Notes: generated from the sequence alone by a model not told the origin. A stretch of DNA of 64,000 nucleotides from an uncultured Gemmatimonadales bacterium (GCA_963821525.1 CAWGED010000005.1:256001-320000), one strand, 5' to 3'; positions 6,012 through 58,739 are shown, counted from the first letter of the stretch. Made by a program: numbers and translations.

Positions 6012-6082
6012 AGCCGTAAGCCGTAAGCCATAGGTTGCCAGCTTGGCCGCTCGCTTACGGCCTAAGGCTTACGGCTTAAGGC
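6012..6082. repeat. Inverted pair of heptamer arrays (AGCCGTA)x3 ... (CTTACGG)x4
   Basis: agccgtaagccgtaagccatagg (6012-6034) is complementary to cctaaggcttacggcttaaggc (6061-6082) with 2 mismatches. Confidence 0.85.
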
Positions 6083-6117
6083 AGATACTCGAACCAACCA
6101 CTCAAACTGGTACCCCA

Positions 6118-6829
6118 ATGACCACCGATGGCAGCCCGCTAATTCAGCTCGAAGGCATCAAGAAGGTCTTCTATACCGAAGAGGTAGAAACCCATGCCTT
6201 GTCCGAGATCCATCTCGAGATCCGGAGGGGCGACTACGTAGCCATCGCGGGTCCATCGGGCTGCGGGAAGACCACGCTCCTGTCGATCCTCGGCCTGCTC
6301 GACACGGCGATCGGGCGGCACCTACATGCTCGACGGCAAGTCGGTGGCGCAACTCGGGGCCTCGGAGCGAGCCCGCATTCGGAACCGGGAGATCGGGTTC
6401 ATCTTCCAGGCGTTCAACCTCATCGGCGATCTCACCGTGTATGAGAACGTCGAGCTGCCGCTCACCTACCGCGGGCTGCCCTCCGCCGAGCGGCAGAAAC
6501 GGGTCAAGGACGCGCTGGACAAGGTGGGGATGACCCACCGGGTAAAGCACTACCCCTCGCAGCTCTCGGGCGGTCAACAGCAGCGGGTCGCTGTGGCGCG
6601 CGCTGTAGCAGGCCAGCCGCTGATCCTCCTGGCGGACGAGCCGACCGGAAATCTCGACTCCAGCAACGGTGAGCAGGTGATGGAGCTGCTGCGCGATCTG
6701 CATCGCGCCGGCGCCACGATCTGCATGGTGACCCACGACCCGCGGTATGCCCGACATGCCGACCGGGCGGTGCACCTCTTCGATGGCCGGGTGGTGGAGG
6801 ACACGACCCCGGAACTCGCCCCGGTATAG
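6118..6829 (+). CDS. ABC transporter ATP-binding protein (LolD/MacB type; frameshift ~6310-6325)
   Basis: Walker A GPSGCGKT in one frame; [25 protein letters not shown] and VTHD in the next. Confidence 0.93.
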
Positions 6830-6842
6830 CACCAATACGATG

Positions 6843-6866
6843 ACTCAGTCCCCAGTCCTCAGTCCT
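6843..6866 (+). repeat. Heptamer array (CTCAGTC)x3, single arm before permease 1
   Basis: actcagtccccagtcctcagtcct. Confidence 0.8.
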
Positions 6867-6896
6867 CGCCGCTAAGCAACTGAACGGGAGGCCGAC

Positions 6897-9329
6897 GTGA
6901 ATACGCTGTTGCAGAATCTGCGCTACGCCGGGCGCCAGCTCCGCAAGAGTCCGGGTTTCACGACCACCGCGGTGCTGACCCTGGCTCTCGGCATCGGAGC
7001 CAACAGCGCGATCTTTTCGGTGATCAACGCTACCCTGCTGCGCCCCTTGCCTTACGCCGATCCGTCGCGCCTCGTCACTGTCGAACACCACTACCCGGGG
7101 CTCAACGACCTCCTTGCTCCGGTGTCGGTCCCCGGGTTCCTGGCCTACGAGCAGAAGAAGCAGGTCTTCCAGCACGCGGCGGTCGAGACCGGCTGGGCTC
7201 CTACGCTCACCGGTCGGGGAGACCCGCAGCGAGTGGTCGCCAGCCTCATCACAGGAGATTACTTCACCACCCTCGGAGTGAGTGCCGAGCTTGGCCGCAC
7301 ACTCACTCCCGAGGAGAACGAGGCGGGGCACGACAAGGTCGTCGTGCTTAGCCATCCGTTCTGGGAGCGGGTGATGGGTGGAGAGCGCTCCGCGCTTGGT
7401 CAGCACGTGATTCTAGACGGGGAGAGTTACGAAGTCGTGGGTGTGATGCCCGCGAGCTTCCGTGGCTGGATCCGGAATGCCGAGTTGTGGACCCCGATTG
7501 TCTTTACTCCGGCGCAGAAGGATCCCAACCGGTTCACCAATGAGTTCCTGAATTTCATCGGTCGCCTGGCGCCGGGCACCACGTTCGAGCAGGCCAAGGC
7601 CGATATCGCTGCCTACGGCGTGAGCCTCCGGACCGACAATCCCGACCGGTTCGCGCCGGATTGGGGGCTGGTCATGACCACGCTGGATGAAAAGGCCGAC
7701 GGCCCGATTCGCGCCGCGCTCTACGTGCTGCTCGCGGCGGTCGGCTTCGTGCTGCTCATCGCGTGCGCCAACGTGGCCAATCTGCAGCTGGCGAGAGCGG
7801 CGAGCCGCACTCGGGAGATCGCGGTCCGGGTGGCCCTCGGCGCTTCGCCGGGCAAGCTGGTCGGCCAGCTGCTCACCGAAAGCGTACTGCTCGCCGTGAT
7901 CGGCGGTGGTCTGGGACTCCTCCTCGCGGTGTGGGTCGTTCCCGCGCTGTTGGCTCTCAACCCAGGCAACCTGCCTCCCACCGACGAGATCAAGGTCAAC
8001 GGCACGGTATTGCTCTACACCCTGGGGATCTCGGTCTTCACCGGCCTCCTCTTCGGCATCATGCCGGCGCTGCAGCTGGCCCGGACCGACCTGCACGACA
8101 CCCTCAAGGAAGGCGGACGCGGCAGCTCTGGTGACCGGCGCGGTCTAGCGATTCGGCGGGGCCTCGTCGTCGCGACGGTGGCCCTGGCGCTCACGCTGCT
8201 CGCCGGCGCCGGGCTGCTGGTCAAGAGCTTCGCCCGTCTGGTCGGCGTGGATCCCGGTTTCAAGCCCGACCATCTCCTCACCTTCAACATTTCCCTGCCG
8301 CAACTGCGCTACAACAACGACACGCTGCAGATCGCGGCCTTCGAGCGGATCACCAGTGCGCTGGAAGCGGTTCCCGGTGCGGCGAAGGTCGGGGCCACCT
8401 CGACGCTTCCCTTCAGCGGGCAGTGGTCAACCGGAAGCTTTAGCATCGAGGGTTATCAGGTGCCCAAGGGAGCACCCAGTCCCTGGGGAGACCAGCGCGT
8501 TGTCACCCCGAATTTCCTGTCGACTCTTGGAGCGCCGGTTCTCAAGGGACGTCTTTTCGGGCCGGAGGACAGGGCCGGCACACCCCGGGTCGTGATCGTG
8601 GACCAGGAGATGGTCAATCGGTATTGGCCCAAGGATGATCCGATAGGAAAACGGATCACGTTCAATCAGCTCACCGACTCGACGATCGATTGGCTTACGG
8701 TGGTGGGTGTGGTCGGCCATACCAGTCACGAGGGTTTGGACGCCCAACGCCGAGTGCAGATGTACTTCCCGCTCGAGCAGGTAGCGGTCAACTCGATGAG
8801 TTTCATCATCCGGACTCCGGGCGATCCCAACGCCCTGCTGCCCAGCGTGAAGGCAGCCGTTCGGGCGATCGACGCCGATTTGCCCTTCTCGAGAGTCACG
8901 ACGATGGAGGCATTGGTCGAACAGTCCACCGGTCCACGGCGCTTCTCCATGCTGCTGCTCGGTCTGTTCTCGCTGCTGGCGGTGGGACTCGCCTCGATCG
9001 GTCTCTACGGCGTCATGTCCTACAACGTGACCCAGCGTTCGCGCGAGCTTGGAGTACGACTCGCGCTGGGAGCCGCAACCCGGGATCTCCTCGGACTGGT
9101 ACTGCGGCAGGGAATGCGCCTGGTGCTCATAGGCGTGGCAGTCGGACTGGTCGCCGCTCTGGCCGCGACGAGACTGCTCCGCAGCATGCTCTTCAATGTG
9201 AGCAGTACCGACCCCGTCACTTTCATCCTCATCGCGCTGCTCCTGCTCGGCGTTTCGCTGCTGGCGATATGGATTCCCGCCCGCCGCGCGACGAAAGTTG
9301 ACCCGATTATCGCGCTGCGCGCGGAATGA
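6897..9329 (+). CDS. ABC permease 1, duplicated MacB_PCD/FtsX (ADOP family)
   Basis: [62 protein letters not shown]; 810 aa. Confidence 0.95.
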
Positions 9330-9341
9330 GAGAAGTGCAAA

Positions 9342-9358
9342 AGGACTGAGGACTGAGT
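9342..9358 (+). repeat. Heptamer array (AGGACTG)x2+, single arm after permease 1
   Basis: aggactgaggactgagt; reverse complement matches 6843-6859 at 16/17. Confidence 0.75.
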
Positions 9359-9381
9359 GGGCCATCGAGTAGGAGCCGCGT

Positions 9382-11859
9382 ATGACACTCGCTAACGACA
9401 TCCGGGTCGCGCTCCGCTCGCTGCGCCGCTCGCCCGGTTTCACGCTCGCAGCCGTAACCACGCTGGCACTCGGTATCGGTGCCAACACCGCGATCTTCAG
9501 CGTAATAGACGGAGTCCTGCTTCGTCCCACGCCGTTTTCGCACATCGATCGACTGGCGATGGTGTGGGAAACCGATCGCAAGAGCGGCACGACGAGGGAA
9601 CCGGCCTCGGTTCCTGACTTCCAGGATTTCCAGCAGCAGAGCAGGCGGTTCAGCGTGCTGGCGGCTTTCGCCGCGCAGGAGGTGAGCCTCACCCCTGAGG
9701 ATGCGGAGCCCTCGCGCCTCGCGGCGCTGGCGGTGAGCCATGAATACCTCGGCCTCACCGGGATCACTCCGATCATCGGTCGCGGGTTCAGCGCCGAGGA
9801 CGATCGTCCCGGCGGACCTCAGGTGGTGTTGATTGGCGAGGCGCTGTGGCAGCAGCTGTATTCCCGGGATCCCCAGGTTGTGGGCCGAACGATCCGGATC
9901 GACGACGCCCAGCAGACCATCATCGGTGTAGTTCCTTCCACCGCTGACTTCGGTACACTCCAGGTTCTGAGCGCGGCGGACTACGGGAAGGGATTCGCGG
10001 CCCGCGGGGGGCAGGTGCGGGTTGACCTCTGGACGCCGCTGCGCCCGGACCCCGAGAGTTATCCGCGCCAAACTCATCCGATCTTTGTCGTGGGGCGCCT
10101 TGCCGGAACGGAGGGCATCGGAGCCGCGCAACAAGAGGTAGGAGGAATCGCGGCCGACCTCGAGAAAAAGTATCCGGAGAACGACGCTCGCGGAGTTTTC
10201 ATCGAGCCACTGGCCCAGGTGGTATTTGGCCCGGTTCGGCCTGCGCTTTTCGTGCTCATGGGCGCCGTCGCTCTCGTGCTTCTCGTCGCCTGCGCCAACG
10301 TGGCCAGCCTGCTGCTGGCCCGAGGGGCGGAACGACTCCGTGAGGTCACGGTACGGACCGCGCTGGGCGCCACGACCCGTCACCTCGTTCGGCAGTTCCT
10401 GGTTGAAAGCCTTCTCCTCACGGGGTGTGGAGCACTGCTGGGTGTGCTCCTCGCGCAAGAAGGACTCGATCTCCTGCTCGCGCTCGCACCGGGAGATATC
10501 CCGCGTGTCGGCACGGTCGGCATCGACGGGAGGGTTCTCGCAGTCACCCTGGGGGTAACGATCTTCATTGCAGTCCTGTTCAGTCTGTTCCCCACTGTGC
10601 AAGCCACCCGGGTCAACCTGCAATCGGCTCTCCAAGGAGAGGCAGGCCGGGCCGCCTCCGCTGGACGTCAGCATCGCCGGTTCCGGGCGGGATTGGTCAT
10701 CGGCGAATTGGCTCTTGCGGTCATGCTGATGGCAGGAGCTGGCGTGCTGATTCGCAGCCTATGGCGCCTGCGCCAGGTTGACCCGGGGTTCAGCTCCGCG
10801 GGCATCCTCAAGGCGGAGTTCCAGCTGCCGCCCAGTCGGTATCCCACCGATTACTCCAAGTGGCCCCGCTGGCCCGCAACCCACGGGTTCAACAACGAAC
10901 TCCAGCGTCGAGTCGCGGCATTGCCGGGCGTCGAAGCCGTGACGATAGCCGGCAATCATCCGCTCGATGCGGGGTTCACCAGTTCCATCAGTGTGGTAGG
11001 ACGAGAGGCCGAAGCCCACGAGTGGCCCGAGCCGACGATCCGCCAGGTCGATGCCGGGTACTTCAAGACTTTGCGGGTTCCACTACTGGCGGGTCGGAGC
11101 ATTGCCCAGACGGACGATGCCGAAGGCGCACCGGTCATAGTGATTAATGAATCCGCCCAGCGTCGCTTCTTCGGATCCCTGCCTCCCCTGGGTCAGCAGA
11201 TCTCCTTGTGGGGAGCGAGGCGAACCGTCATCGGTGTCGTGGGGAACGAACGCTCCCATGGACTGGCCGAAGACTCACCACCCAGCGTCTATCTCCCGCG
11301 GGCGCAAGCGCCCACGAGTGGAGGGAGTCTGCTCGTGCGGACAACGGCCGGCGATCCTGCGGCGCTCGCCCCAGCGATTCGCCGGGTTGTGGCCGACCTC
11401 GATCCCTCGCTGCCCCTCTTCGGGGTAGAGCCCCTCACTCGTACGCTCTCCAATTCGATGGGGCAGCGCCGCTTCACAATGATCGTCCTTGGCGCATTCG
11501 CCGCGGTCGCACTGTTGCTGGCGGTCATCGGTGTGCACGGGGTACTCACCTACACGGTGACGCAACGAACCCGGGAAATCGGAATTCGGATGGCTCTGGG
11601 CGCCGATCGATCGCGGGTGAGGAGCCTAATCCTCAGTCAGGGAGGCACGCTGGTGGCGGGAGGGCTGATCCTTGGGCTGATCGGCGCATTCGCCATCACT
11701 CGACTACTGAGAGCCCTGCTTTACGGAGTGAGCCCGACCGATCCGGGCACGTTCCTGGGTGTTGCGGTCCTCCTGGCGGTGGTCGCTCTGATCGCGAGCT
11801 ATCTCCCGGCGGCCCGCGCGGCGCGGGTGGATCCTGCGGTGTCACTCAGGAGCGAGTGA
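9382..11859 (+). CDS. ABC permease 2 (ADOP family)
   Basis: Same family motifs ([42 protein letters not shown]); 825 aa. Confidence 0.95.
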   Translation: MTLANDIRVALRSLRRSPGFTLAAVTTLALGIGANTAIFSVIDGVLLRPTPFSHIDRLAMVWETDRKSGTTREPASVPDFQDFQQQSRRFSVLAAFAAQEVSLTPEDAEPSRLAALAVSHEYLGLTGITPIIGRGFSAEDDRPGGPQVVLIGEALWQQLYSRDPQVVGRTIRIDDAQQTIIGVVPSTADFGTLQVLSAADYGKGFAARGGQVRVDLWTPLRPDPESYPRQTHPIFVVGRLAGTEGIGAAQQEVGGIAADLEKKYPENDARGVFIEPLAQVVFGPVRPALFVLMGAVALVLLVACANVASLLLARGAERLREVTVRTALGATTRHLVRQFLVESLLLTGCGALLGVLLAQEGLDLLLALAPGDIPRVGTVGIDGRVLAVTLGVTIFIAVLFSLFPTVQATRVNLQSALQGEAGRAASAGRQHRRFRAGLVIGELALAVMLMAGAGVLIRSLWRLRQVDPGFSSAGILKAEFQLPPSRYPTDYSKWPRWPATHGFNNELQRRVAALPGVEAVTIAGNHPLDAGFTSSISVVGREAEAHEWPEPTIRQVDAGYFKTLRVPLLAGRSIAQTDDAEGAPVIVINESAQRRFFGSLPPLGQQISLWGARRTVIGVVGNERSHGLAEDSPPSVYLPRAQAPTSGGSLLVRTTAGDPAALAPAIRRVVADLDPSLPLFGVEPLTRTLSNSMGQRRFTMIVLGAFAAVALLLAVIGVHGVLTYTVTQRTREIGIRMALGADRSRVRSLILSQGGTLVAGGLILGLIGAFAITRLLRALLYGVSPTDPGTFLGVAVLLAVVALIASYLPAARAARVDPAVSLRSE

Positions 11860-11869
11860 AGACATTGCT

Positions 11870-11895
11870 GAGTACCTGGTACCGAGTACCGAGTA
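11870..11895 (+). repeat. Heptamer array (AGTACCG/GGTACCG/AGTACCT)x3+
   Basis: gagtacctggtaccgagtaccgagta directly after the permease 2 stop. Confidence 0.8.
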
Positions 11896-11937
11896 ATGGT
11901 GCCCTGAGATGTTGACAGCTCACAGCCGGATTGTCGG

Positions 11938-14400
11938 ATGACGCTCGCCAACGACATCAAATACGCGTTCCGTTCCCTGCGCCGGACGCCCGGTTTCACC
12001 ACCGCGGTCGTGCTCACGCTTGCGCTCGGTATCGGGGCAAACACGGCCGTCTTCAGCATCGCCAACGGCATCCTGTGGCGTCCTGTTCCGGGTAAGGAGC
12101 CGGACCGGCTGATGGTGATCGTCGCCAAGAACCGGGCTCAGGGCGGCTTCTTCGACTACTCCTACGCCGACTACGAAGACTTTCGGCGCGACGCGTCGGC
12201 ATTCGAGGACGTGGCGGCGTACTACCCGGCGCCGGTCAGCCTCAACAGCCAGGACCGCAACGACCGGATCTGGGCCGAGCTGGTGAGCCCGAACTACTTC
12301 GGAGTGCTGGGCGTCGAGCCGGTGGAGGGGCGAGGTTTTCTCGCCGAGGACGGACCGAATTCGGGTGCTGCACCTGTCGCTGTTGTGAGCGACCGGTTCA
12401 AGCGCCGCCTCGCGCCTGATGGAACCTCGGTACTTGGCCAGACAGTCCGTCTGAACGGGCAGGCCTTCACGATCGTCGGCGTGGCACCCCGCGAGTTCCG
12501 CGGCGTGTACCACGCTCTGTTCGGCCCGGACGTCTGGCTGCCGGTATCGAGCTTCGACGTGGTTTCACGCGGGGTACCGGGTTCATTGCTGGCTCGCGGG
12601 AGCAACTCTTTCCGTCTCATGGGGCGCCTGCGTCCCGGCGTCACCTACGACCAAGGCGGCTCCGCTGTCGCCGCGATCGGTCGCCGCCTCGAACGCGATT
12701 ACCCGGTTACCAATGCCGGGTTCGATGCCGTCGCCATGCCGGAGCTCAAGGCCCGACCGGAGCCGGATGCCGCTGGAGGCTCGGCCCTGGCCGCGCGCGC
12801 CTTTCTCGTCGTGGTGGGACTGGTCCTGCTGATTGCCTGCGCCAACGTAGCCAATCTGCTTCTTGCGCGTGCCGCATCGCGCCGGAAGGAAATCGCCCTC
12901 CGCCTCGCATTGGGCGCGGGACGTCTCCAACTGCTCCGACAGCTGCTGATCGAGAGCACCGTCCTCGGCCTCCTGGGCGGCGCACTGGGTATGGGTCTCG
13001 CCATCTGGGCGACGGCCGCACTCGGCAACGGATTCCACGCGCCGAGCGACATTCCCTTCCAGGTGGACTTCAGCCCTGACCGTCGGGTCCTCTGGTTCAC
13101 GCTGGCCATCTCACTCCTGACCAGCCTGGTATTCGGACTGGTGCCGGCATTGCAAGCGGCTCGCCCCGAGGTCGTCGGCGCGCTCAAGAATGAACCAGCC
13201 GGGCGTCACGGGTCGAACCGATCTCTCCTGCGCGGCGGGCTGGTGATCACTCAGGTCGCACTCTCCTGCGTCCTGCTGATCGGAACCGGTCTCATGCTCG
13301 AGACGCTGGGGCAGATGAAGCGGCTCGACCCAGGGTTCGATACCAGGAACGGGCTCCTGGTTTCGGTCTCGCCCGCGCTCCTGGGATACGACCAGCGTCA
13401 GGGGGAGAGCTTCTATCGCCGGATGCTGGAAGAGGTTCGCCAGACACCCGGAGTGCAGGGCGCGACGCTGGCTCAGTACGTCCCACTCGAATTCAGTGCC
13501 AGCGGAGGGGGACTCTTCGTCGCGGGACGAGAGGGCGACCAGAAGAGTCAGGGCGGCGATCCGACCTATTGGAGCGTCGTGGAGCCTGGCTATCTCGCCT
13601 TGATGGGGACCCGGCTTCTCGACGGTCGCGACTTCAGCCTGCAGGACGATTCCACCGCACCACGTGTCGCGATCGTCAATCAGGCGCTGGCCCAGCGCTA
13701 CTGGCCCGGCGCCTCGGCGATTGGAAAGACGATCCGGCTCAATGCGGTGAGTGGCCCGCCAATCGAGATCATCGGTGTCGCCGCCGACGGCAAGTACCGG
13801 GGACTCGAGGAGCGCCAGCTTCCGTATCTCTACCTGCCTCTAAGCCAGAACTACACCGGGAACGCGACACTCGTCGTTCGAAGCTCCGGTGATCCCCTGG
13901 CACTGCTGCCGGCGGTACGGGGAGCCATTCATCGTGCCGATCCGGACATGCCGGCCTTCGATACCAAGACGATGCAGCAACTGATCGAGGGCAGGGCACT
14001 ACTGGGCCCGCGCTTCGCTGCGGGGCTGGCTGGCGTGTTTGGGCTGATCGCGCTGGGCCTCGCAATGGTCGGCCTATACGGCCTCATCTCCTACTCGGTC
14101 TCACGGCGGACTCGGGAGATGGGGATCCGCATCGCGCTGGGAGCGCCGCTTCGATCGGTTCGCGGCATGGTAGTGGGTGACGGATTTCGGGTGGCCGGTA
14201 TCGGAGTCGTCCTGGGAACGGTCGTGGCGGCCGCGCTCACTCACATGCTACGGAGCCTCTTCTTCGGCATGAATCCGGGCGATACCCGGCTGCTGGTCTC
14301 CGTGCCATTGGTTCTTATCGCGATCGCGGTGCTGGCCAGCTATCTGCCCGCGCGCCGGGCGACCAAGGTTGATCCGATGGTGGCGCTTCGGGCTGAGTAG
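11938..14400 (+). CDS. ABC permease 3 (ADOP family)
   Basis: Family motifs; ends [17 protein letters not shown]; 820 aa. Confidence 0.95.
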   Translation: MTLANDIKYAFRSLRRTPGFTTAVVLTLALGIGANTAVFSIANGILWRPVPGKEPDRLMVIVAKNRAQGGFFDYSYADYEDFRRDASAFEDVAAYYPAPVSLNSQDRNDRIWAELVSPNYFGVLGVEPVEGRGFLAEDGPNSGAAPVAVVSDRFKRRLAPDGTSVLGQTVRLNGQAFTIVGVAPREFRGVYHALFGPDVWLPVSSFDVVSRGVPGSLLARGSNSFRLMGRLRPGVTYDQGGSAVAAIGRRLERDYPVTNAGFDAVAMPELKARPEPDAAGGSALAARAFLVVVGLVLLIACANVANLLLARAASRRKEIALRLALGAGRLQLLRQLLIESTVLGLLGGALGMGLAIWATAALGNGFHAPSDIPFQVDFSPDRRVLWFTLAISLLTSLVFGLVPALQAARPEVVGALKNEPAGRHGSNRSLLRGGLVITQVALSCVLLIGTGLMLETLGQMKRLDPGFDTRNGLLVSVSPALLGYDQRQGESFYRRMLEEVRQTPGVQGATLAQYVPLEFSASGGGLFVAGREGDQKSQGGDPTYWSVVEPGYLALMGTRLLDGRDFSLQDDSTAPRVAIVNQALAQRYWPGASAIGKTIRLNAVSGPPIEIIGVAADGKYRGLEERQLPYLYLPLSQNYTGNATLVVRSSGDPLALLPAVRGAIHRADPDMPAFDTKTMQQLIEGRALLGPRFAAGLAGVFGLIALGLAMVGLYGLISYSVSRRTREMGIRIALGAPLRSVRGMVVGDGFRVAGIGVVLGTVVAAALTHMLRSLFFGMNPGDTRLLVSVPLVLIAIAVLASYLPARRATKVDPMVALRAE

Positions 14401-14464
14401 TACCGAGTACCTGGTACCGGGGACGCGTGAACCAGCTAACAGCTAACAGCTGACGGCTGACGGC
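14399..14464 (+). repeat. Two heptamer arrays: (AGTACCG)x3 and graded (CAGCTAA)2(CAGCTGA)(CGGCTGA)
   Basis: agtaccgagtacctggtaccg 14399-14419; cagctaacagctaacagctgacggctgacggc 14433-14464. Confidence 0.8.
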
Positions 14465-14486
14465 GCTTCAACTAACGAGGAACCCG

Positions 14487-16913
14487 ATGTTCATGACGGA
14501 CCTGAAACACGCCGCTCGGTCGCTGCGTCGCTCGCCCGGATTCGTGATCGCCGCGGTGGCGACGCTGGCACTCGGGATCGGCGCCAACAGCGCGATTTTC
14601 AGCGTGGTCAACGCCGTCCTGATGCGGCCGTTGCCATATCCCGATCCCGATCGGCTGGTCCTGGTCTGGGAGCGCAATGTTCCGCGACACCAGGAAACCA
14701 ACGTGGTGAATCCGCAGAACTATCTCGACTGGCAGGATCGCGCGAAGAGTTTCTCGGGACTCGCCCTGCTGTCCTGGTCCCAGATCACCTTCACCGGCGA
14801 TTCTCCGGAGATTATCTCGGGCCGCGCGGTCACCCCAAACTTCTTCGATGTAATCGGAATGCCGCTGGCGATGGGCCGCGGATTCACCCAGGCCGAGGGG
14901 TTGCCGGGTAGCCCGTCGGTGATCGTGCTGAGCGATGGTCTCTGGCGACGCCGGTTCGGCGCCGATCCCGGAATCGTCGGCCGTTCGGTTCCGGTCGCCG
15001 GGGGAAGTGCACTGGTCATCGGCGTCGCGCCGGCCGCGCTGGGACCGATGCCGTGGGGCCGGGAACAGTATTGGGAACCCTTCAGGATCGATCCGAGCGA
15101 TCGGATACGCGGTGGCCGCTACGCCCTGGTGGTTGGTCGCCTGGCGCCGGGCGTCAGCCGGGAGCGCGCTCAAGCGGAGATGAGCGGGATCGCCGCCTCG
15201 CTGGAGAAGGAGTATCCCGACTTCGATACCGGGTGGAGCACGAATGTGGTCCAGCTCAAGGACCAGGTCGTTGGCTCCTCTCGCCGGGCGCTGCTGCTCC
15301 TCCTCGGTGCAGTCTCGATGGTCCTGCTGATCGCCTGCGCCAACGTGGGCAACCTGATGCTGAGCCGAGCCACCGGCCGGCAACGCGAGGTGGCCATTCG
15401 CACCGCGCTCGGCGCTTCGCGCTGGCGGCTGATGCGTCAGGCGTTGCTCGAGAGCGTGCTGCTCGCCGCGATCGGCGGCGCCGTGGGACTGTTACTCGCC
15501 GTTTGGGCGGTTGACCTCCTGGTGAGCGCCGGCCCGCGGGACATCCCGCGGCTCAGCGAGATCGGTGTGGACCCCCGGGTGTTCGCCGTTACCGCCGGGA
15601 TCTCGCTTCTGGTGGGAATCCTGTTCGGGCTGCCTGCTGCCCTGGGCGACGTGCATGCCGACCTCGCCTCCGGACTCAAGGGCGAGAGCCCGCGGAGCAC
15701 GGCGACTGTTTCGGCCACCCGTTTCCGGGGCGCGCTCGTCGTGGCCCAGATGGCGCTCGCACTGATTCTCCTCGCCGGCGCCGGTCTCCTGGTTCGCTCG
15801 CTGCAACAACTCGCTTCGGTTGATCCCGGATTTGATCCGGAGAATGTCCTCACCGTCTCCGTGGACCTTCCCGAGGCGACCTACGGAGAGGGAGCCCGGC
15901 AGACGGCGTTCCTCGACCAGCTTCGCGACCGGGTGAGGTCGCTTCCCGGTGTAACCGACGTCGGAGCGGTGAACATGCTGCCGCTCACGTCGGCGGGTTC
16001 TTCGACGACGATCCATCTCATGGGACGACCCGAACCTGCTCAGGGGCAGGAGCCGGTCGCCGACATTCGCTACGCCGATCCGGGCTACTTCACGACCATG
16101 CGCGTTCCGCTCCGGCGGGGCCGCAGCTCCAACACCGCCGACGTGCCGAAGGCGCCCCCGGTCGTGCTGATCAACGAGACCATGGCGCGGCAATTCTGGC
16201 CTAATGAGGACCCCATCGGCCGACGGCTCAAGATCGATATGTGGAAGCCGGACGATGTGGTCGAAATCATCGGCGTGGTTGGGGATCTGCATCCCAACAC
16301 GCTCGATGACGACATCCGCCCGATGATCTACTACCCGCTTTCTCAGGAACCCTCCCGTTCGCTGACTCTCGTCATTCGGCACGCGAGCGGAGTGAACGGA
16401 CTGGCGGGGCAGGTGAGGGCCGCGGTGCGCGAGATCGATCGGGGCGTGCCGCTTACCGACGTCGCCACGATGAATGCCCGGCTCAACCAGTCGATGTCGG
16501 ATCGCCGCTACCCGATGCTGCTCCTGGCCGGCTTCGCCGCGCTGGCGGTGGTCCTCGCGTCGGTCGGGATCTACGGCGTTCTTGCGTACACAGTCGGCCA
16601 GCGCACCCGAGAGATCGGGGTGCGGATGGCTCTGGGTGCCCGACGTGGTGACGTGTTGCGCATGGTCCTCGGTGGTGGCATCCGGCTGACGCTCATCGGT
16701 GTGGTGTTGGGAGCGGTGGGTGCCGCGATCGCCGGGCGAGCACTGGGGAAATTGCTTTACGGCATCACGCCGACCGATCCGGTGACCTTCGCGGCGGTGG
16801 CGCTGTTGCTCACGGCCATCGCCGCGGTCGCGTGCTATCTCCCCGCTCGCCGAGCGACCCGGGTGGACCCTATGGTGGCGTTGAGGGCGGAGTGGGAAAG
16901 GAGAAAGGACTGA
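14487..16913 (+). CDS. ABC permease 4 (ADOP family), short C-terminal extension into repeat
   Basis: Family motifs; ends VALRAE-WERRKD with the stop inside AGGACTGA. Confidence 0.95.
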   Translation: MFMTDLKHAARSLRRSPGFVIAAVATLALGIGANSAIFSVVNAVLMRPLPYPDPDRLVLVWERNVPRHQETNVVNPQNYLDWQDRAKSFSGLALLSWSQITFTGDSPEIISGRAVTPNFFDVIGMPLAMGRGFTQAEGLPGSPSVIVLSDGLWRRRFGADPGIVGRSVPVAGGSALVIGVAPAALGPMPWGREQYWEPFRIDPSDRIRGGRYALVVGRLAPGVSRERAQAEMSGIAASLEKEYPDFDTGWSTNVVQLKDQVVGSSRRALLLLLGAVSMVLLIACANVGNLMLSRATGRQREVAIRTALGASRWRLMRQALLESVLLAAIGGAVGLLLAVWAVDLLVSAGPRDIPRLSEIGVDPRVFAVTAGISLLVGILFGLPAALGDVHADLASGLKGESPRSTATVSATRFRGALVVAQMALALILLAGAGLLVRSLQQLASVDPGFDPENVLTVSVDLPEATYGEGARQTAFLDQLRDRVRSLPGVTDVGAVNMLPLTSAGSSTTIHLMGRPEPAQGQEPVADIRYADPGYFTTMRVPLRRGRSSNTADVPKAPPVVLINETMARQFWPNEDPIGRRLKIDMWKPDDVVEIIGVVGDLHPNTLDDDIRPMIYYPLSQEPSRSLTLVIRHASGVNGLAGQVRAAVREIDRGVPLTDVATMNARLNQSMSDRRYPMLLLAGFAALAVVLASVGIYGVLAYTVGQRTREIGVRMALGARRGDVLRMVLGGGIRLTLIGVVLGAVGAAIAGRALGKLLYGITPTDPVTFAAVALLLTAIAAVACYLPARRATRVDPMVALRAEWERRKD

Positions 16914-16988
16914 GGACTGGGACTGAGATAGTTCCGAGTTCCGAGTTCCGAGCTACGAGCATCAAACTCAGTCCTCAGTCCTCAGTCC
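16906..16988. repeat. Nested heptamer arrays (AGGACTG)x3-(AGTTCCG)x3-(CTCAGTC)x3
   Basis: Outer arms 16906-16927 and 16967-16988 are complementary; a different array 16930-16957 lies in the loop. Confidence 0.88.
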
Positions 16989-17012
16989 ACATCACTTTGA
17001 TTGGACCTTCCA

Positions 17013-19547: not shown

Positions 19548-19551
19548 AAAC

Positions 19552-19627
19552 AGTACCTAGTACCTAGTACCGAGTACGCGAGGATCGGGGCGCCAGGCTC
19601 GGTACTCGATACTAGGTACTGGGTACT
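19552..19627. repeat. Inverted pair of heptamer arrays (AGTACCT/G)x4 ... (AGGTACT)x4
   Basis: agtacctagtacctagtaccgagtacgcgag / ctcggtactcgatactaggtactgggtact; ~30-bp stem, ~15-nt loop. Confidence 0.88.
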
Positions 19628-19654
19628 TAATCTCCATCTAACTTGAGAGTACGC

Positions 19655-20353
19655 GTGATCCGACTAACCGACCTCGAGAAGTCCTTCGACACCAAGCCGT
19701 CGCCGACCTACGTTCTGCGCCGGATCAATCTGACGATCCAGCCCGGCGAGTTCGTCACCATCATGGGGCCCTCGGGTGCGGGAAAGTCGACGCTGCTCGC
19801 GATTCTTGGGATGCTCGACGGCGAGTACCGGGGGCAATACGAATTCAAGGGACAGCAGGTCCAACCCCTCAAGCCAAAGCAGCGGGCGGAGCTGGCCAAG
19901 CAGTCGGTGGGATTCGTCTTCCAGCAGTATCATTTGCTCGACGATCTCACGGTGGCGGAGAATCTCGATATGCCGCTTTCCTATCGGGACCTCCGGAGCT
20001 CGGAGCGTGCGGCGCTGGTGGCCGATACGCTGGATCGATTTCACATCGTCGGAAAAAAGGACCTCTATCCCCGCCAGCTCTCCGGCGGCCAGCAACAACT
20101 GATCGCGGTGGCCCGGGCAATCATCGCCAAGCCGGCACTGTTGCTTGCCGACGAGCCCACCGGAAATCTCCATTCCGCCCAGGGCCGGGAGATCATGGAA
20201 CTGTTCTGCAAGCTCAACGCGGCGGGTACCACGATTATTCAGGTGACCCACTCTCTGGAGAACGCGCAGTACGGCAGCCGGATCGTGGAGTTGAAAGACG
20301 GCTGGATGGTTGGGGATGCAGCTGTGAGCCGTCAGCCGTCAGCCGTCAGCTGA
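19655..20353 (+). CDS. ABC transporter ATP-binding protein 2
   Basis: [38 protein letters not shown]; last residues (SRQPSAVS) are encoded by the AGCCGTC array. Confidence 0.93.
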
Positions 20354-20934: not shown

Positions 20935-20951
20935 GACTTCAACCCCTGGCC

Positions 20952-22301: not shown

Positions 22302-22303
22302 TA

Positions 22304-22438: not shown

Positions 22439-22465
22439 CCGTCTCACCCCCACATATTCCCGCCA

Positions 22466-38773: not shown

Positions 38774-38811
38774 CGTGAGAACCGTGGGCGGTGTACCGGA
38801 ACGGGCTACGG

Positions 38812-38924: not shown

Positions 38925-38970
38925 TTGGAGCAGTTCGCGTCTTTTCCCCGTTCCCTGTTCCCGCTCTTTA

Positions 38971-46511: not shown

Positions 46512-46618
46512 AAACGCAGAGGCGCAGAGAACGCAGAGGGACCAAATCTTGATTCTGGGTTCTCCCCCCCCCCGAAACCTTTCGCTACAATCTCTGCGTT
46601 CTCTGCGTCTCTGCGTTT
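46512..46618. repeat. Inverted pair of (CGCAGAG) 8/9-mer arrays
   Basis: aaacgcagaggcgcagagaacgcagag / ctctgcgttctctgcgtctctgcgttt; 27-bp stem with one G-T pair. Confidence 0.85.
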
Positions 46619-46670
46619 CTCAATCTGGGAGCCAATCACCAAGTCGTAGTCCCGTGTTGCAGCTCGGCCC

Positions 46671-49105: not shown

Positions 49106-49243
49106 GGTCGGTAGTCGGTCGTGGGTCGATGGTCGATGGTCGAGGTCGTGGTCTCTGGGGTGTCAGTCCTGCGTCTCGAGGTTGGATTGCGGTAGACTGT
49201 AGATCAGGGTCCATGAGACCCAAGACCCATGACTCATGACTCA
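49106..49243. repeat. Degenerate heptamer arrays (GAGTCAT/GGGTCTT after oppD; CGACCAT before oppF, read on minus strand)
   Basis: ggtcgatggtcgatggtcgagg and agacccaagacccatgactcatgactca on the plus strand. Confidence 0.7.
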
Positions 49244-52045: not shown

Positions 52046-53685
52046 TCACTCCCGATCCCTCGATGCTTCCTGACCGGGGCGCACTCTCCAGCGCCAGACC
52101 TCAGACCAGGGTGAATCCGGGCGCAGCGTCACCTTCTCGAACCGGGCATCTACGGCGTAGAGGAAGACGGGCGCGTACAGGAAGATTGCCGGCGCGTCGC
52201 CCTCGATCGTCACGACCGCATCCCGCCACAGCTTGCGCGCAGTCTCGGGGGAGCGGGAAGCGCGGGCCAGGAGGGTGTCCACCTGAGGATTGCAGTAGTG
52301 GGCCACGTTGGTGCCGCCGATGCCGGCACAACTCCAGCTCTGGCTGAGCCCGGATGGCGTCGGGTCCTGGGTAACGGCGTAGAGATCGAGATCGAATTTG
52401 CCGCGTTCGGCGAGTCGGCGTGTACAGCGGTGGGTCCAGCGGCTGTACCTCGAGGTCCACTCCGATCCGGCGGAGCTGTTCCTGGGCCTGAAGCGCCATC
52501 TTCCGCCTGGCGCCGCTCGTCGACGGGAAAATGGCCGTGAGGTGCAACGGGCGGCCATCCTTGTCCAGAACGCCATCGCGGTCATGGTCGGCCCAGCCTC
52601 GGGAGGCCAGGATCTCACGGGCCTTGGTCGTGTCATTCCTGGGCGGCGCCGGAGACTCGAGGCGCGTCGCCAGTACTGCTGAAACCGGTCCCGCGGGGAC
52701 CAGTCGAGCTGGGTCCGTAGGTGGACCTGACGATGGTCTCCCGATCGAGGGCAAGGGCCAGTGCCCGGCGCACCGCCGGATCTCCCAGAATAGGATGTGG
52801 CTTGGTGGTATCCGCCGGGTCCCTCTGGTTGAACAGCATGTATCCCACCATCAGGCTCGGCATCGGATAGAGCCGGAACCGCGGGTTCTGTCCCAACCGC
52901 TCGGGATTGGCGAACTGGTAAATGTTGTCTACCGCATCCGCCTCACCACCGAAGAGCAGGTTCATTCTCGCTTCGGTATCGCCGGCGATGAGAAATACCA
53001 CGCGGCTGAGGCCCGGTTTGCCGAGGAAGAAATCGTCGTTCGCAGAGAGCTCGATCAGCTGGCCGGACACCCGTCGCTTCCAGCGGTAGGGGCCGTTACC
53101 GACGGGATTCGCCGCAAAGGACGAAGCTCCTACCGAGTCAGGCGAGACTTTGGCCAGCAGGTGAGCCGGCAGCGGCGGCGCGTGATACACCGCGTCGTAG
53201 AACTGCTCGGCGTAGGGTGCGGTGAACTTGAAGATGACCCGGCGGTCGCCGTCGGCGGTGACGCTGCTGATGCGCCGGAGGAGTCCGGCGAGCTGGCCAT
53301 CCAGTTTCTCCATTCGCCCGCGCTCGATCGCGAAGACCACGTCGGCGGCGGTAACCGGCGCCCCGTCGTGCCACTTGGCCCGCGGGTCGAGCTCGAAGGC
53401 CAGAGTGGTAGGATCGATCCGGCGCCAGGACTTGGCCAGCCGCGGGACGAATCGTGGCTCATCGGTCGTGGCAAGATCCTCGGGGAGATCTGCCAGCCGG
53501 AGGAACATCAGGTCGGACACCTCACGATTCGCCGCATCGCCGCCAAACAGGGTCGGAATGGGCGACATCGCCTCACGAGCCGTGACGATCACGACCGTGC
53601 CGCGCCCGGCTGAGGTCGACTGCGCCAGTGCGGGTGCGGCGATGGTGAGGATGGAAAAACCGAGCACGACGAGAGCACGTCGCAT
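52046..53685 (-). CDS. oppA: Peptide ABC transporter substrate-binding protein (family 5; two frameshifts)
   Basis: PRLAKSW, KWHDGAPVTAADVVF, PVGNGPY, DPAVRRALALALDR, DRDGVLDKDGRPL, YCNPQVD. Confidence 0.88.
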
Positions 53686-54480: not shown

Positions 54481-54586
54481 CGGGAACAGGGAAAAGGGAA
54501 CAGGGAACCGGGCGTTCCCAGCTGTTCCCGTTCCCTGTTCCCCGTTCCCCGTTCCCGCAGTTGCTTTCACCTCAGTCCTCAGTCCT
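54481..54586. repeat. Inverted (GGGAACA/G)/(TGTTCCC) arrays plus an AGGACTG array (minus strand) between gcvP and the ligase
   Basis: cgggaacagggaaaagggaacagggaacc / gttcccgttccctgttccccgttccccgttccc; ctcagtcctcagtcct 54571-54586. Confidence 0.85.
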
Positions 54587-54595
54587 TCTTGCTCG

Positions 54596-57509
54596 TCACC
54601 CCGCGCCCGCCCCCACCGCTTCCGGCTCGGCGTACGCCGACACCGGCGGACAGGTGCACACGAGGTGGCGGTCGCCGTAGGCGGCGTCGATCCGGCCCAC
54701 GGTTGGCCAGGACTTGTGTTCCCGGAGACCGGGCATGGGATAGGCGGCGCGCTCCCGCGGATAGGGACGATCCCAGGCATCCTCGATCACCTGGACCAGG
54801 GTGTGCGGCGCGTTGGTCAGGAGATTGTTGCCCTTGGGCGAGCGGCCTTCCTCGATCTCCCGAATTTCCTCCCGGATTCCGATCATCGCATCCACGAAGC
54901 GGTCGAGCTCCTCGCGCGGCTCGCTCTCGGTCGGCTCGATCATCAGCGTGCCGGGTACCGGGAAGGACACCGTCGGCGGATGGAAGCCATAGTCGATGAT
55001 CCGCTTGGCAATGTCCTCCACTTCGATTCCGGCCGAGGCCTTGAACGGCCGCATGTCGAGAATGCACTCATGCGCGACGAGGCCGTGATTGCCGGCGTAG
55101 AGCACCGGGTAGTGGTTCTTGAGCCGGTGGGCGATGTAATTGGCGCTGAGGATCGCGACCTTGGTCGCCTGGGTCAGCCCTTCCTGTCCCATCAATGCGA
55201 TGTAGGCCCAGGAGATCGGCAGGATCGCCGCACTGCCCCAGGGGGCGGCGGAGATGGTGCCGCAACTCTGGGTATGACCCAGCGGGACCACCGGATGATC
55301 CGGCAGGAACGGGGCGAGGTGTGGCGCCACGCAGATCGGACCCATGCCGGGACCGCCGCCGCCATGCGGGATGCAGAAAGTCTTGTGCAGGTTCAAGTGG
55401 CAGACATCGGCGCCGAAATCGCCCGGACGGCAGAGCCCGACCTGGGCGTTCATGTTGGCGCCATCCATGTAAACCTGCCCGCCATTCTGGTGCACGATCT
55501 CGCAGACCTCACGGATGCCTGACTCGAAGACGCCGTGAGTGGAGGGATAGGTCACCATCAGGCAGGCCAGCGTGTCCTTATGCTCCGCGGCCTTGGCCCG
55601 CAGATCCGCCAGATCAATGTTGCCGAGTGGATCGGACTTGATCGCGACCACATCGAGTCCCGCCATGACCGCACTGGCTGGATTCGTCCCGTGGGCGGAC
55701 ATGGGGATCAGGCAGGTCGTCCGGTTGTGCTGACCCCGGGCGCGATGGAAGGCACGGATCACCAGCAGGCCCGCGAATTCGCCCTGGGAGCCCGGCATTC
55801 GGTTGCAACGACACTTTGGCGAAGCCGGTGATCTCCGCCAGTTGGGCTTCGAGCTGGCTGAAGAGCAACTGGTAGCCGGCGGTCTGGTCCCGGGGGACGA
55901 AGGGATGCAGCCGGTTCAGCTCGCGCCAGCTCACCGGCATCATCTCGGTGGTGGCGTTCAGCTTCATGGTGCAGGAGCCCAGAGGAATCATCGACGAGGT
56001 GAGCGAAAGGTCCCTCGCCTCGAGCCGCTTGATGTAGCGCAGCATCTCCGTCTCGGAGTGACACTTGTGGAAGACGGGATGGGTGAGAAACGCACTGGTG
56101 CGGCGGAGCGCCTCCGGAATCGCCGGCTCGGTCGTGGCACCGCCATCGCCGAGCATGTAGGGCAGGGCGACGTCGAGAGAGAAGACGGCGATGACGTCGG
56201 ACAGGTCGCCTACGGAGACCGTCTCGTCGAGCGCCACACAGATCCGGTGTCCGTCGATCACCCGCAGGTTGATGTGCCGGGCCCGCGCCGCATCGAGAAT
56301 CCTGGGCAAATTGGCCGGCTTCACCTCGACGCAGACGGTGTCGAAGAAGTCCTTATGGACCAAGTGGTACCTCAGGCGGTGCAGGGCCGCCGCGAGGTAG
56401 GTCGCCTGGGTGTGGACCCGCTCGGCGATCCGGCGCAGGCCATCCGGGCCGTGGTAGACCGCGTACATGCTCGCCATCACGGCCAGGAGTACCTGCGCCG
56501 TGCAGACATTGCTGGTGGCTTTGTCGCGCCGGATGTGCTGTTCCCGAGTCTGCAGGGCCATGCGTAGCGCCGGCCGCCCGCTGGTGTCTTTCGAGACACC
56601 GATGATCCGGCCCGGCAGGTGACGCTTGTACCCTTCACGAGTCGAGAAGAAGGCGGCGTGAGGGCCGCCGTAGCCCATCGGCACCCCGAAGCGCTGCGAG
56701 TTGCCGACGGCGATGTCGGCTCCCCACTCTCCAGGCGGAGTCAACATCGTCAGTGCGAGCAGGTCGGTCGCGGCGGTCACCAGAGCACCCCCGGCATGAG
56801 CCCGGTCGCACAGTTCGCGGAAATCTCGAATCGCTCCGTCAGTGGCAGGATACTGGACCAGTGCTCCGATGACCGAGCCGCCGAACTCGAAGGTTTCGGG
56901 AGCCGCGACTCGCACTTCGACTCCGCGAACCTCAGCACGGGTCTGCACCACGGCGATCGTCTGGGGATGACAGGCCGAGTCCACCAGGTACACCGGCTTG
57001 CCCTTGGGAGACGCGACCGCTTCGGTCAGGTGCATCGCCTCGGCGGCGGCCGTCGCTTCATCGAGGAGCGAGGCGTTGGCCACCGGCAGGCCGGTGAGAT
57101 CGGCCACGAGGGTCTGGAAGTTGAGCAAGGCCTCGAGCCGGCCCTGCGCGATTTCCGCCTGATAGGGAGTGTACGCGGTATACCAGCCGGGGTTCTCGAG
57201 GATGTTCCGCTGGATCACCTGGGGCGTGAAGGTCCCGTAGTACCCCATGCCGAGGTAGGAGCGGAAGATCCGGTTCTGGGCGGCGAGACCGCGGAGGGCC
57301 TGCAGCACTTCGCGCTCACTCCGGCTGGGTGGCAGGTCCAGTGGCTGGGGCAGCCGGATGTCCGCCGGGACTACGGCGTCGATGAAAGCGTCCAGCGTGT
57401 CGTAGCCCAGTTCGTGCACCATGGCCTGGATATCGTCTCGACGAGGCCCAATGTGGCGAGAGACGAAGCGGTCGGTGCGGAGCAGGGTATAGGCGGTTGG
57501 TTCAGACAT
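54596..57509 (-). CDS. gcvP: Glycine dehydrogenase (decarboxylating), P protein (frameshift ~55795)
   Basis: [77 protein letters not shown]. Confidence 0.96.
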
Positions 57510-57518
57510 GCGAGGTGA

Positions 57519-57560
57519 TGGAGACGGAAGACGGGAGACGGAAGACGGACGGTAGACGGG
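57519..57560 (-). repeat. Heptamer array (CCGTCTY)n before the gcvP start
   Basis: Plus strand ggagacggaagacgggagacggaagacgg...gtagacggg; complement family of 30194-30237. Confidence 0.75.
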
Positions 57561-57597
57561 AACAAAACGGCGCCCCGCAGTCAGAGCCGGAGGCGCC
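57561..57597 (-). terminator. Possible intrinsic terminator between gcvH and gcvP
   Basis: Minus strand GGCGCCTCCG-N10-CGGGGCGCC followed by GTTTTGTT. Confidence 0.5.
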
Positions 57598-57627
57598 AGG
57601 AGAAGCAAACAACACTGCATCGAAAAC

Positions 57628-58011
57628 CTACCCGCCGATCTTCTGCTGATACTGGGCGGCGGAGAGGAGCGACGATAACTCCGAGGGATCGCGAGGGCGC
57701 AGCTTGATCATCCACCCGGCCCCATAGGGATCACGGTTGATGGCGGCTGGATCGGTGTCGAGGGCAGTGTTGGCCTCGACCACCTCGCCGCTCAGCGGGC
57801 AGAAGAGTTCGGACACGGCTTTCACCGCTTCGACGGTGCCGAAGACTCCCATGCGCTCGAAGGTAGTGCCGGGCTTGGGCAGCTCGACGAAGACGACATC
57901 TCCCAGCTCGCCCTGGGCGTAGTCGGTGATGCCGATCTCGACGACGTCGCCCGACTTGCGGACGTACTCGTGTTCAGGGGTGTAGAGCAGATCGGCCGGG
58001 ATGTTGGGCAC
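57628..58011 (-). CDS. gcvH: Glycine cleavage system H protein
   Basis: [41 protein letters not shown] (lipoyl Lys), [10 protein letters not shown]. Confidence 0.97.
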
Positions 58012-58063
58012 GTTGGCTCCGCAAATTGCGTGGGGGGGAGGATAGAGGAGGGGGGCGGGCCCG

Positions 58064-58681
58064 TCAAGCAGGAACGAGCTGGTCCCAGACCGCTCTGGCG
58101 CGCTGCTCGAGCGCCGCGCGATCGCCCTCGTTTTCGATCACGAATGGGGCCCGCGGCGGGGTCCCACCGACCCAGTCCCGTTTCTCCGAGGCGGGCATCT
58201 GTGTGGCGAGCATGCGGCGGGCTTCGTCTGCCGGGAGCCCACGTGATTCCATCAGCCGCTGGAGCCGCAGGGGCTCCGGAGCATCGACCAGAATCACGGC
58301 GTCGAAGGCTGCCGGATCCGCCGACTCGAAGAGCAGCGGGATGTCGCTCACTACTACCCGCGCACCCTGCCGTCTCGCCGACTCCAGCAGCTCGGCCCGC
58401 CGGCGGTGGACTTCGGGATGAACGATGGCGTTGAGATCGGCTCTCGCCTCCGGGTCCCGCATGACGATCTGCCGAACCTTGCCCCGGTCGAGCTGGCCAT
58501 CAGGCAGGATCACATCGGGGCCGAATCTCGTCGCGATGGCTCCCAACACCGGTGAGCCGGGCTGTTGCAGTTCCCGGACGATCTGGTCGGCGTCGATGAT
58601 GACGGCACCCCAGCTCTGAAACAGCTCGGCGACGGTGGACTTGCCGGAGGCGATGTTGCCGGTGAGGGCGAGGTGGATCAT
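58064..58681 (-). CDS. coaE: Dephospho-CoA kinase
   Basis: LTGNIASGKSTV, IDAD, LDR, LNAIVHP, DIPLLFE. Confidence 0.96.
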   Translation of the reverse strand: MIHLALTGNIASGKSTVAELFQSWGAVIIDADQIVRELQQPGSPVLGAIATRFGPDVILPDGQLDRGKVRQIVMRDPEARADLNAIVHPEVHRRRAELLESARRQGARVVVSDIPLLFESADPAAFDAVILVDAPEPLRLQRLMESRGLPADEARRMLATQMPASEKRDWVGGTPPRAPFVIENEGDRAALEQRARAVWDQLVPA

Positions 58682-58690
58682 GGGCTGAGT

Positions 58691-58739
58691 GAGCTAACAG
58701 CTGTAGCTGTTAGCTAATAGCTAGTTAGCTATAGCTGTT
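58691..58739. repeat. Degenerate AGCT-core heptamer array (AGCTAAC / GTTAGCT)
   Basis: gagctaacagctgtagctgttagctaatagctagttagctatagctg fills the tdk-coaE gap. Confidence 0.75.

Follow-up and report, generated by a model that had tools for sequence, protein, structure and literature searches.

Short tandem arrays of 7-nucleotide (nt) units in the intergenic spacers of an uncultured Gemmatimonadales bacterium follow a convergent layout, in which one orientation of the unit lies on the left of the spacer and its reverse complement on the right, independently of the strand of the flanking genes. The arrays were studied in a window of 64,000 nt (assembly G000, GCA_963821525.1; contig C5, positions 256001–320000) and in the assembly as a whole (4.33 Mb, 19 contigs, 64% G+C, 81% completeness). 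They probably belong, as arms or as half-arms that have survived, to rapidly changing palindromic elements of the spacers; these would be of the short tandemly repeated repetitive (STRR) class, would form RNA stem-loops and would be renewed in connection with genes of the PF05635 family.

Array sites in the window were located with Tandem Repeats Finder (TRF) and by direct reading of the sequence. Genome-wide, arrays were called as runs of exact lag-7 self-matches (at least 9 matches), with a third-order Markov shuffle as control, and inverted partners as reverse complements no more than 250 nt away with at least 13 out of 16 matches, with the reversed sequence as control. Genes were called with our own fifth-order Markov caller, which replaced a codon-usage caller and covers 74% of the genome; both callers under-call, owing to the frameshifts of the assembly. 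The unit orientation forming the 5' arm is referred to as F, and '>' means that F is on the plus strand, '<' that it is on the minus strand.

Convergent layout and polarity of the arrays

The whole genome contains 645 exact lag-7 runs of at least 9 matches compared with 34 after shuffling, and 195 compared with none when at least 14 matches are required. According to the Markov gene caller, 561 of the 645 runs (87%) are intergenic. Lag 8 is also enriched (168 versus 32), and lags 4, 5, 10 and 11 are close to chance. After filtering, 636 arrays belonging to 105 unit families were left. With such an excess it is extremely improbable that the arrays are artefacts of assembly or chance. Many genes of the assembly are frameshifted and short-read contigs are prone to break at arrays, the contigs of public runs frequently ending there, as an artefact would have it. 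However, arrays are present in the same spacers of four other assemblies of the genus, and a Logan contig from an unrelated public run spans one whole hairpin (window 19472–19691), which excludes an assembly artefact for the sites examined; the possibility had been raised in an earlier note on this window. Support from public runs was sought in the Logan contigs of four of them; the share of sampled window words present was 25% or less in every run. No public RNA run carrying window positions 16500–21000 was listed.

Neighbouring arrays within one spacer are arranged '><' in 63 cases and '<>' in one, with 19 '>>' and 24 '<<'. The ratio of '><' to '<>' is 32:0 in plus-strand tandem spacers, 11:1 in minus-strand tandem spacers, 15:0 between convergent genes and 5:0 between divergent genes. 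For 332 of 436 arrays the nearer gene is the one 5' of the F strand, which is true in all four spacer types. Within a family the strand of the 5' arm is fixed (287 of 290 arms, 59 families), as in AGCCGTC (22:0), AGGGAGT (20:0), AGTACCG (16:0) and AGGACTG (14:0). The layout is therefore convergent in every kind of spacer, with F left and its complement right.

This geometry bears directly on what the earlier note had proposed, namely a gene-strand grammar in which one orientation marks stop codons and the other start codons, for translational coupling or processing. The after-stop/before-start orientation is real and highly non-random. It also holds on both strands, as claimed; since '> ... 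<' is mirror-symmetric and reads alike on both strands, the rule follows from the geometry and is no evidence for a code tied to the gene strand. F arrays do lie at a median of 8–12 nt past stop codons and sometimes provide the stop codon, and 36 of 57 families have a stop within F. Nevertheless, the layout is identical in convergent and divergent spacers and on both strands, F lacks a stop in the two largest families, and at 6843 the array after a stop has the 'wrong' orientation. A dependence on the coding strand is already contradicted by the strand-independence of the layout, and we regard the grammar as very unlikely. What remains non-trivial is the polarity of the units themselves, F leading and its complement never.

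In 57 families of clean polarity the F units can be aligned to G-A-G-n-n-G-T; the frequencies at the respective positions are 89% for A, 72% and 61% for G, and 65% for T. On the F strand G exceeds C in 44 of these families and C exceeds G in 6. The 4.11 bits of information in the consensus exceed what 30 trials with randomly flipped strands gave (mean 3.25, maximum 3.41). An oriented AG..GT consensus is thus common to the 57 families, most of which are without G-tracts: GGG occurs in 9 of the 57 F units (49 of 278 arms) and is absent from 48 families. G-quadruplexes were rejected as a general cause on this count. Stop codons occur in F only in 29 families, in the complement only in 5 and on neither strand in 16. 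Selection of stop or start codons was likewise rejected, because of the 16 families without a stop on either strand and because families with a stop in the complement only obey the rule 29:4.

An inverted partner was found for 298 of 540 intergenic arrays (~55%), compared with 10 in the reversed-sequence control. In tandem spacers the resulting hairpins start at a median of 8 nt past the upstream stop (10th percentile −4, i.e. the array provides the stop codon) and their median distance to the following start is 54 nt; in 82 of 96 cases they are nearer the stop. They occupy 6.4% of convergent, 3.2% of tandem and 2.7% of divergent spacers, with a stability of −0.49 kcal/mol per nt compared with −0.25 for shuffled sequence. 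Intrinsic (Rho-independent) terminators were rejected as an explanation since T-tracts follow 7% of the hairpins only. Units do not decay progressively between the inner and the outer end of the arrays (3.03 versus 3.27 matches at the first unit). Genes flanked '<' gene '>' by arrays of the same family number 3 of 23 in one count (2.0 expected) and 8 of 36 in another (3.5 expected, p = 0.02), a signal that is weak at best.

Array sites in the window and their turnover

The assembly G003, from the same genus, has a contig (contig 6) that is syntenic with 177 kb around the window, with ~83–95% identity by block. The array sites of the window are given below, together with the state of the orthologous spacer in G003 or other relatives.

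6012–6082: hairpin 10 nt past the stop of an HlyD-family gene; 5' arm AGCCGTA ×2.6 (6012–6029), 3' arm of TACGGCT type (6053–6082). In G003 the left arm and loop (~50 nt) are cleanly absent and the right arm alone is left.
6844–6867: single array CAGTCCT ×3.4, F on minus, 29 nt before a permease start and ~13–23 nt past the previous stop; kept in G003.
9342–9357: single array AGGACTG ×2.3, plus strand, 12 nt past a stop in a spacer of 52 nt. The G003 spacer holds a whole hairpin (AGGACTG ×3, loop, CAGTCCT ×3).
11870–11895: array GAGTACC ×3.7, plus strand, after a permease stop, followed by degenerate TGACAGC-type units. The G003 spacer is 3 nt only, without an array.
14399–14464: convergent pair with non-complementary arms, AGTACCN ×3 (F plus), then CAGCTAA/GCTGACG units (F minus); the composite is also present in G003 and G004, with differing copy numbers.
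16906–16988: nested set of AGGACTG ×3 '>', AGTTCCG ×3.3 '>' and CAGTCCT ×3.1 '<'.
19552–19627: hairpin 4 nt past a permease stop; 5' arm AGTACCT ×3.7, 3' arm of GGTACT type ×3.9. In four relatives and on contig C11 the right arm is a TAACAGC/TGACGGC array instead.
20319–20934: PF05635 cassette; AGCCGTC ×9.3 (20319–20383), gene on the minus strand (20418–20798), CTGACGG ×4.1 (20906–20934).
22304–22438: degenerate AGCCGTC arm, half of a ~120-nt palindromic core element, GCTGACG ×5.6. G003 has the whole core element and a right arm of ~12 units (by eye).
30194–30220: array GACAGGA ×3.9, plus strand, directly past a stop; the G003 orthologue has GGGAGAC ×4, then CGACCAT units.
34815–34952: hairpin in a spacer between convergent genes, built of 8-nt units; left arm GAATGGCG, right arm CCATTCCG.
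38753–38962: AGGACTG ×3 '>', ~120-nt palindromic core (~38800–38930), units of another family (TTCCCCG/GTTCCC) '<'.
46513–46620: hairpin of 8–9-nt units, AACGCAGAG arm, then TCTCTGCG(T) arm.
49117–49243: spacer between divergent genes with a GGTCGAT-type arm '>' and a GACTCAT/GACCCAT arm '<'; ~11 copies in G003 (by eye) versus ~5 in the window.
54482–54586: between two minus-strand genes, GGGAACA ×4.4 '>', GTTCCC(C) ×5 '<', CCTCAGT ×2.4 '<'.
57520–57559: array GGAGACG/GAAGACG ×4, F on plus, by the start of the minus-strand gcvP, and therefore reading as the reverse complement before a start; kept in G003 with changed copy number.
58699–58739: AGCTGTT/AGCTATA units ×6, plus strand, next to where the minus-strand coaE starts; this family's polarity is less uniform (6:2).

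Arrays were thus found at every site listed in the earlier note, with reservations at three of them: only ~1.6 copies are present at 47719, the array at 22304 is degenerate, and the CAGTCCT array at 6843 is flanked by both a stop and a start, its label 'before start' being a choice.

The ~120-nt palindromic element (CACCTCATCCCGAG ... CTCGGGATGAGGTG) lies in the loops of several heptamer hairpins with differing unit families, in the window (38800–38930 and 22330–22390) and elsewhere in G000 (C5:802691, C8:288913, C11:10620 and C5:576501). Only its right half is present at window 22330, where G003 holds the entire element. Rfam at gathering thresholds gave no match in the whole window, this element included.

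Twenty-seven array-bearing spacers were compared between G000 and G003, 25 of which, with arrays inside 330 nt per spacer, were classed by eye. All 25 differ (flanks ~90–97% identical): an entire arm or hairpin distinguishes ~5–6 of them, the unit family has been swapped in at least 7, and the loop is inverted in one; changes in copy number are included, and polarity is kept throughout. Clean arm-plus-loop indels separating a hairpin from a single array are seen at window 6002 and 9330 and at C5:329739. Unit families of one or both arms are swapped, with flanks 93–99% identical, at C5:236686, C5:242398 and window 19548. At window 34814–34967 the 8-nt GAATGGCG units of G000 correspond to a hairpin of 7-nt AGATTGA/CAATCTT units in G003, with flanks that are 96% and 93% identical, so that the entire element has been replaced at a fixed position. 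At C5:325835 a new hairpin stands next to the remnant of an old arm. The ~48-nt loop between the AAGATTG and CAATCTT arms at C5:221643–221770 is the exact reverse complement of its counterpart in G003, and the inverted arms have therefore mediated an inversion. Taken together, the comparison shows rapid turnover with retained polarity, in which hairpins and single arrays interconvert at orthologous sites. Single arrays may therefore be read as surviving half-elements.

Slippage favouring 7-nt units, together with template switching at hairpins that mirrors the arrays, could also produce neutral microsatellites with neither a mobile element nor a function. Copy number has indeed changed at nearly all orthologous spacers, the idea of heptamer slippage is present in the literature (cited in the available parts of PMC4692102 and PMC4679880), and a terminator-like core hairpin lies inside 13 of 98 loops compared with 13 of 294 controls. 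However, slippage and mirroring predict both polarities, and the counts are 63:1 in this genome and 21:0 among the matches listed from other phyla (see below). At one site the unit family and even the period (8 versus 7) were swapped between flanks 93–96% identical, and 57 families have an oriented consensus in common. The comparison with G003 shows that more than slippage renews the array sites, and a purely neutral origin is in our view unlikely.

Recombination may interfere in one region. In the tandem permease array (window 6897–19547) paired anchors at three spacers lie more than 2 kb apart in relatives, possibly because G001, G003 and G004 have additional paralogues, possibly because anchors fell on the wrong paralogue. 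Recombination among the permease paralogues confounds comparisons of filled and empty spacers there. This includes the lone filled-versus-empty site (window 11860); among the features of miniature inverted-repeat transposable elements, inverted arms are present and the internal sequence is unconserved.

The genes around the window arrays, assigned by Pfam, include five tandem MacB_PCD+FtsX permeases, ATP-binding cassette (ABC) ATPases, a sigma-54 activator and glycine-cleavage genes. Several genes of the window look split or truncated:

6158–6829: ABC ATPase.
52046–53667: SBP_bac_5 protein.
54596–57509: gcvP.
58764–59447: thymidine kinase.
59817–61283: DbpA-domain protein without a DEAD-domain match.

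Completeness in the genus is just 75–81%, although the assemblies have few contigs. Together with the split genes this suggests indel errors or many pseudogenes, either of which lowers the coverage of any gene caller.

PF05635 cassettes and arrays in other genomes

The gene at window 20418–20798 (minus strand) belongs to PF05635 ("23S rRNA intervening sequence protein", a four-helix bundle; E = 1.5e-30). Exact arrays lie within 400 nt of 7 of the 13 PF05635 genes in this genome. Among 11 arrays near these genes, the 10 of known polarity are all left '>' or right '<', and one left array is unclassed. The polarity is the same for PF05635 genes on either strand, each cassette has its own unit family, and both arms were found for 3 of the 13 genes. 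The earlier note had considered a tie of the arrays to the four-helix-bundle cassette and had suggested correlating their counts across genomes; an association of this kind is supported here. Across 41 related genomes, counts of an array probe correlate with PF05635 counts (rho = 0.59); when each genus is represented by a single genome (n = 31), rho is 0.46. In hairpin-bearing genomes of other phyla PF05635 is encoded in 8 of 10, compared with 1 of 14 controls, and 13 of 20 PF05635 genes have an array within 450 nt. Confident orientations at those cassettes are left '>' in 6, left '<' in 1, right '<' in 5 and right '>' in 1; complementary arms are present in three cassettes (3 of 20 genes) from three phyla.

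Two further observations concern the cassette of the window. In three soil or rhizosphere runs (X1–X3) contigs join position 20353 to 20959, with ~250 other letters replacing the PF05635 cassette, and link the stop of the ABC ATPase to the start of the regulator. Contig C11 of the same assembly carries, at 7272–11376, a copy of window 19000–23000 that is 87–91% identical and includes a PF05635 cassette; either a duplication or the co-assembly of a strain variant could account for it.

It is tempting, if improbable, to regard the (N)AGNNGT arrays, oriented toward the middle of the spacer and present in many phyla, as terminal repeats of a widespread PF05635 cassette family, whose protein would recognise F as single-stranded DNA or RNA and whose non-autonomous progeny would be the hairpins without a gene. 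If true, this would be a protein–repeat pair comparable to repetitive extragenic palindromic (REP) sequences and their REP-associated tyrosine transposases (RAYT), except that the driving protein has no known catalytic domain, and it would explain STRR-type repeats. A resemblance links PF05635 to Avd, which serves diversity-generating retroelements as an accessory protein (PMC10053308).

Four Y1_Tnp (IS200/RAYT-like) genes were found in the assembly, at C12:7145–7486, C1:35924–36265, C12:49440 and C19:590173. They are flanked by short GC-rich hairpins of their own, e.g. GCGCCCCGAAGGGGCGC, the flanks of two being near-identical. None of the four has heptamer arrays on both sides, and one has a separate hairpin 161–254 nt away. 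The Y1_Tnp genes and their GC-rich hairpins are a separate REP-like system, and a RAYT link of the heptamer arrays was rejected on the 0 of 4 count.

The probe (AGNNGTN)×3 gave 158–442 matches per genome within the genus and 0–286, patchily, elsewhere in the order. With (AGNNGTN)×4 and one genome per species at least 127 loci were found; those listed include Cyanobacteria, Acidobacteriota, Verrucomicrobiota, Planctomycetota, Chloroflexota, Desulfobacterota, Campylobacterota, Firmicutes and others. Among these loci the partner lies downstream in 23 oriented matches (21 distinct hairpins) and upstream in none, compared with 2 and 3 in the control. Hairpins of other phyla thus have the same polarity, 21:0 among the matches listed. 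For 89 single arrays among the loci listed, a crude open-frame proxy placed the nearer frame 5' of F in 58, 3' in 23 and at equal distance in 8 (p = 1e-4).

Interpretation and relation to known systems

We favour the following model. In each spacer (N)AGNNGT reads 5' to 3' away from the left gene, with its complement by the right gene. The arrays probably form the arms of spacer palindromes that belong with the STRR-type heptamer repeats of Xanthomonas and Nostoc, and single arrays would be half-elements left as remnants. The elements are probably renewed through a cassette-like process tied to PF05635 genes, and in RNA the arms are expected to form long stem-loops directly past the stop codon.

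Among arrays in tandem spacers that have no partner, F is on the coding strand in 68, at a median of 12.5 nt past the stop. The complement is on the coding strand in 54; these keep at least 14 nt from the stop, and their median distance to the start is 67 nt (Fisher p = 5e-8). Overall, partnerless arrays obey the position rule 134:40. In G020, a member of another genus of the family, 400 kb contain 45 arrays with the rule at 30:9 (Fisher p = 0.007). Each array might accordingly be polar on its own, selection near gene ends favouring F in the outgoing RNA or single strand (G-quadruplexes, R-loops or protein binding to (NAGNNNN)n are examples), with hairpins as a by-product of arrays meeting. 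This is the reading offered by Rehm et al. in the available part of their paper (PMC4692102). It is favoured by the behaviour of the single arrays, by G020, where arrays are mostly single and yet polar, and by 11 non-complementary convergent pairs, one of them conserved in five assemblies. On the other hand, complementary partners are far above chance, arms come and go as clean arm-plus-loop indels, G-tracts are too rare among F units for a general G-quadruplex cause, and codon content fails as well, given the 29:4 of the complement-only-stop families. We therefore consider polarity of each array alone to be rather unlikely as the whole explanation.

Several results weigh against the palindromic-element model itself. 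A considerable share of the arrays (246 of 540), and 37 of the 45 in G020, have no partner. The 11 '><' pairs made of unrelated units include the non-complementary AGTACCN + TAACAGC/TGACGGC pair in the spacer orthologous to window 19548, found in four relatives and on a second contig of this assembly, the window itself carrying a self-complementary AGTACCN hairpin at that site; pairing is therefore not the sole determinant of orientation. Loops are unrelated among copies of one family, unlike those of ordinary mobile elements, and at least 6 T within 12 nt past the 3' arm are seen in just 7% of hairpins (background 1.5%). Concerning the link to PF05635, four genomes (G023, G027, G031 and G038) have 4–8 PF05635 genes and no probe match, the controls for co-occurrence in other phyla are not matched for phylogeny, and a reverse transcriptase (RVT_1, PF00078) was not found in this assembly, which is 81% complete. 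We know of no catalytic role for PF05635. Finally, the gene calls are home-made and, in an assembly rich in frameshifts, limited to the coverage given above.

The present case shows the odd gene-relative orientation of heptamer repeats to be a strand-symmetric convergent layout, which is no stop/start code and needs neither G-quadruplex potential nor stop codons. The same oriented AG..GT forms the 5' arm in at least 8 phyla, which narrows the candidates to mechanisms able to tell one strand of the unit from the other. As regards annotation, gene ends are marked by the arrays, which at times provide the stop codon and also break short-read assemblies.

Like REP sequences, their hairpin-forming doublets (REPIN) and RAYTs, the present elements are extragenic palindromes, often just 3' of genes, with hundreds of dispersed copies and a small gene between inverted repeat copies. 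They differ in that tandem arrays make up the arms and vary in copy number and in unit variants, that the loops are unconserved and that no single palindrome is shared. ORF-bearing 23S rRNA intervening sequences (PF05635/S23p; ORF, open reading frame) also have a PF05635 gene within long inverted repeats capable of forming a stem. The cassette at 20319–20934, in contrast, has heptamer arrays as arms and lies between protein-coding genes; as its neighbours are the ABC ATPase and the sigma-54 activator, it is not within 23S rRNA.

The heptamers of cyanobacterial STRRs are short tandem spacer repeats with a non-random orientation to the adjoining genes. Oriented TAACTGA heptamers of Beggiatoaceae, one orientation of which gives stops in all three frames (MacGregor, 2015; PMC4679880), have in common with the present arrays that they are short, tandem and non-randomly oriented toward neighbouring genes. 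According to the accessible part of that paper, nearly all are direct repeats just upstream of starts, with 1 inverted pair in 169 sets; here inverted pairs are the majority. A search that left most subscription journals outside found no literature on heptamer polarity beyond PMC4692102 and PMC4679880, and none tying PF05635 to heptamer arrays.

The closest relatives are the repeats that Rehm et al. described from two Xanthomonas genomes (GGGAATC) and from Nostoc PCC 7120 (GGGGAYT) (2015; PMC4692102). As far as the available text of that article goes, these lie almost exclusively nearer the 5' neighbouring ORF regardless of its orientation, form 70 and 75 convergent inverted pairs in the two Xanthomonas genomes and are rarer than expected between divergent ORFs; no function was identified there, G-quadruplexes being the authors' preferred reading. 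Both systems have tandem 7-nt units with a strong intergenic bias, convergent pairs, copy-number change between relatives and fewer repeats between divergent genes. Intergenic 7-nt arrays, F near the 5'-side ORF and convergent pairs are thus all found here, a G-tract in just 9 of the 57 F units. The polarity is the one published there for one unit type per genome, so that the earlier note, right about a real polarity and a real cassette association, went too far in tying the orientation to the coding strand and in calling the system undescribed. There, one G-tract unit per genome was read as a G-quadruplex former; here there are at least 57 families, 48 of them without GGG, and a link to PF05635 cassettes that was not met in the accessible part of that paper. 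Compared with the same text, what is added here is the oriented consensus of 57 families, the same polarity in many phyla, and a fast turnover in which polarity is held.

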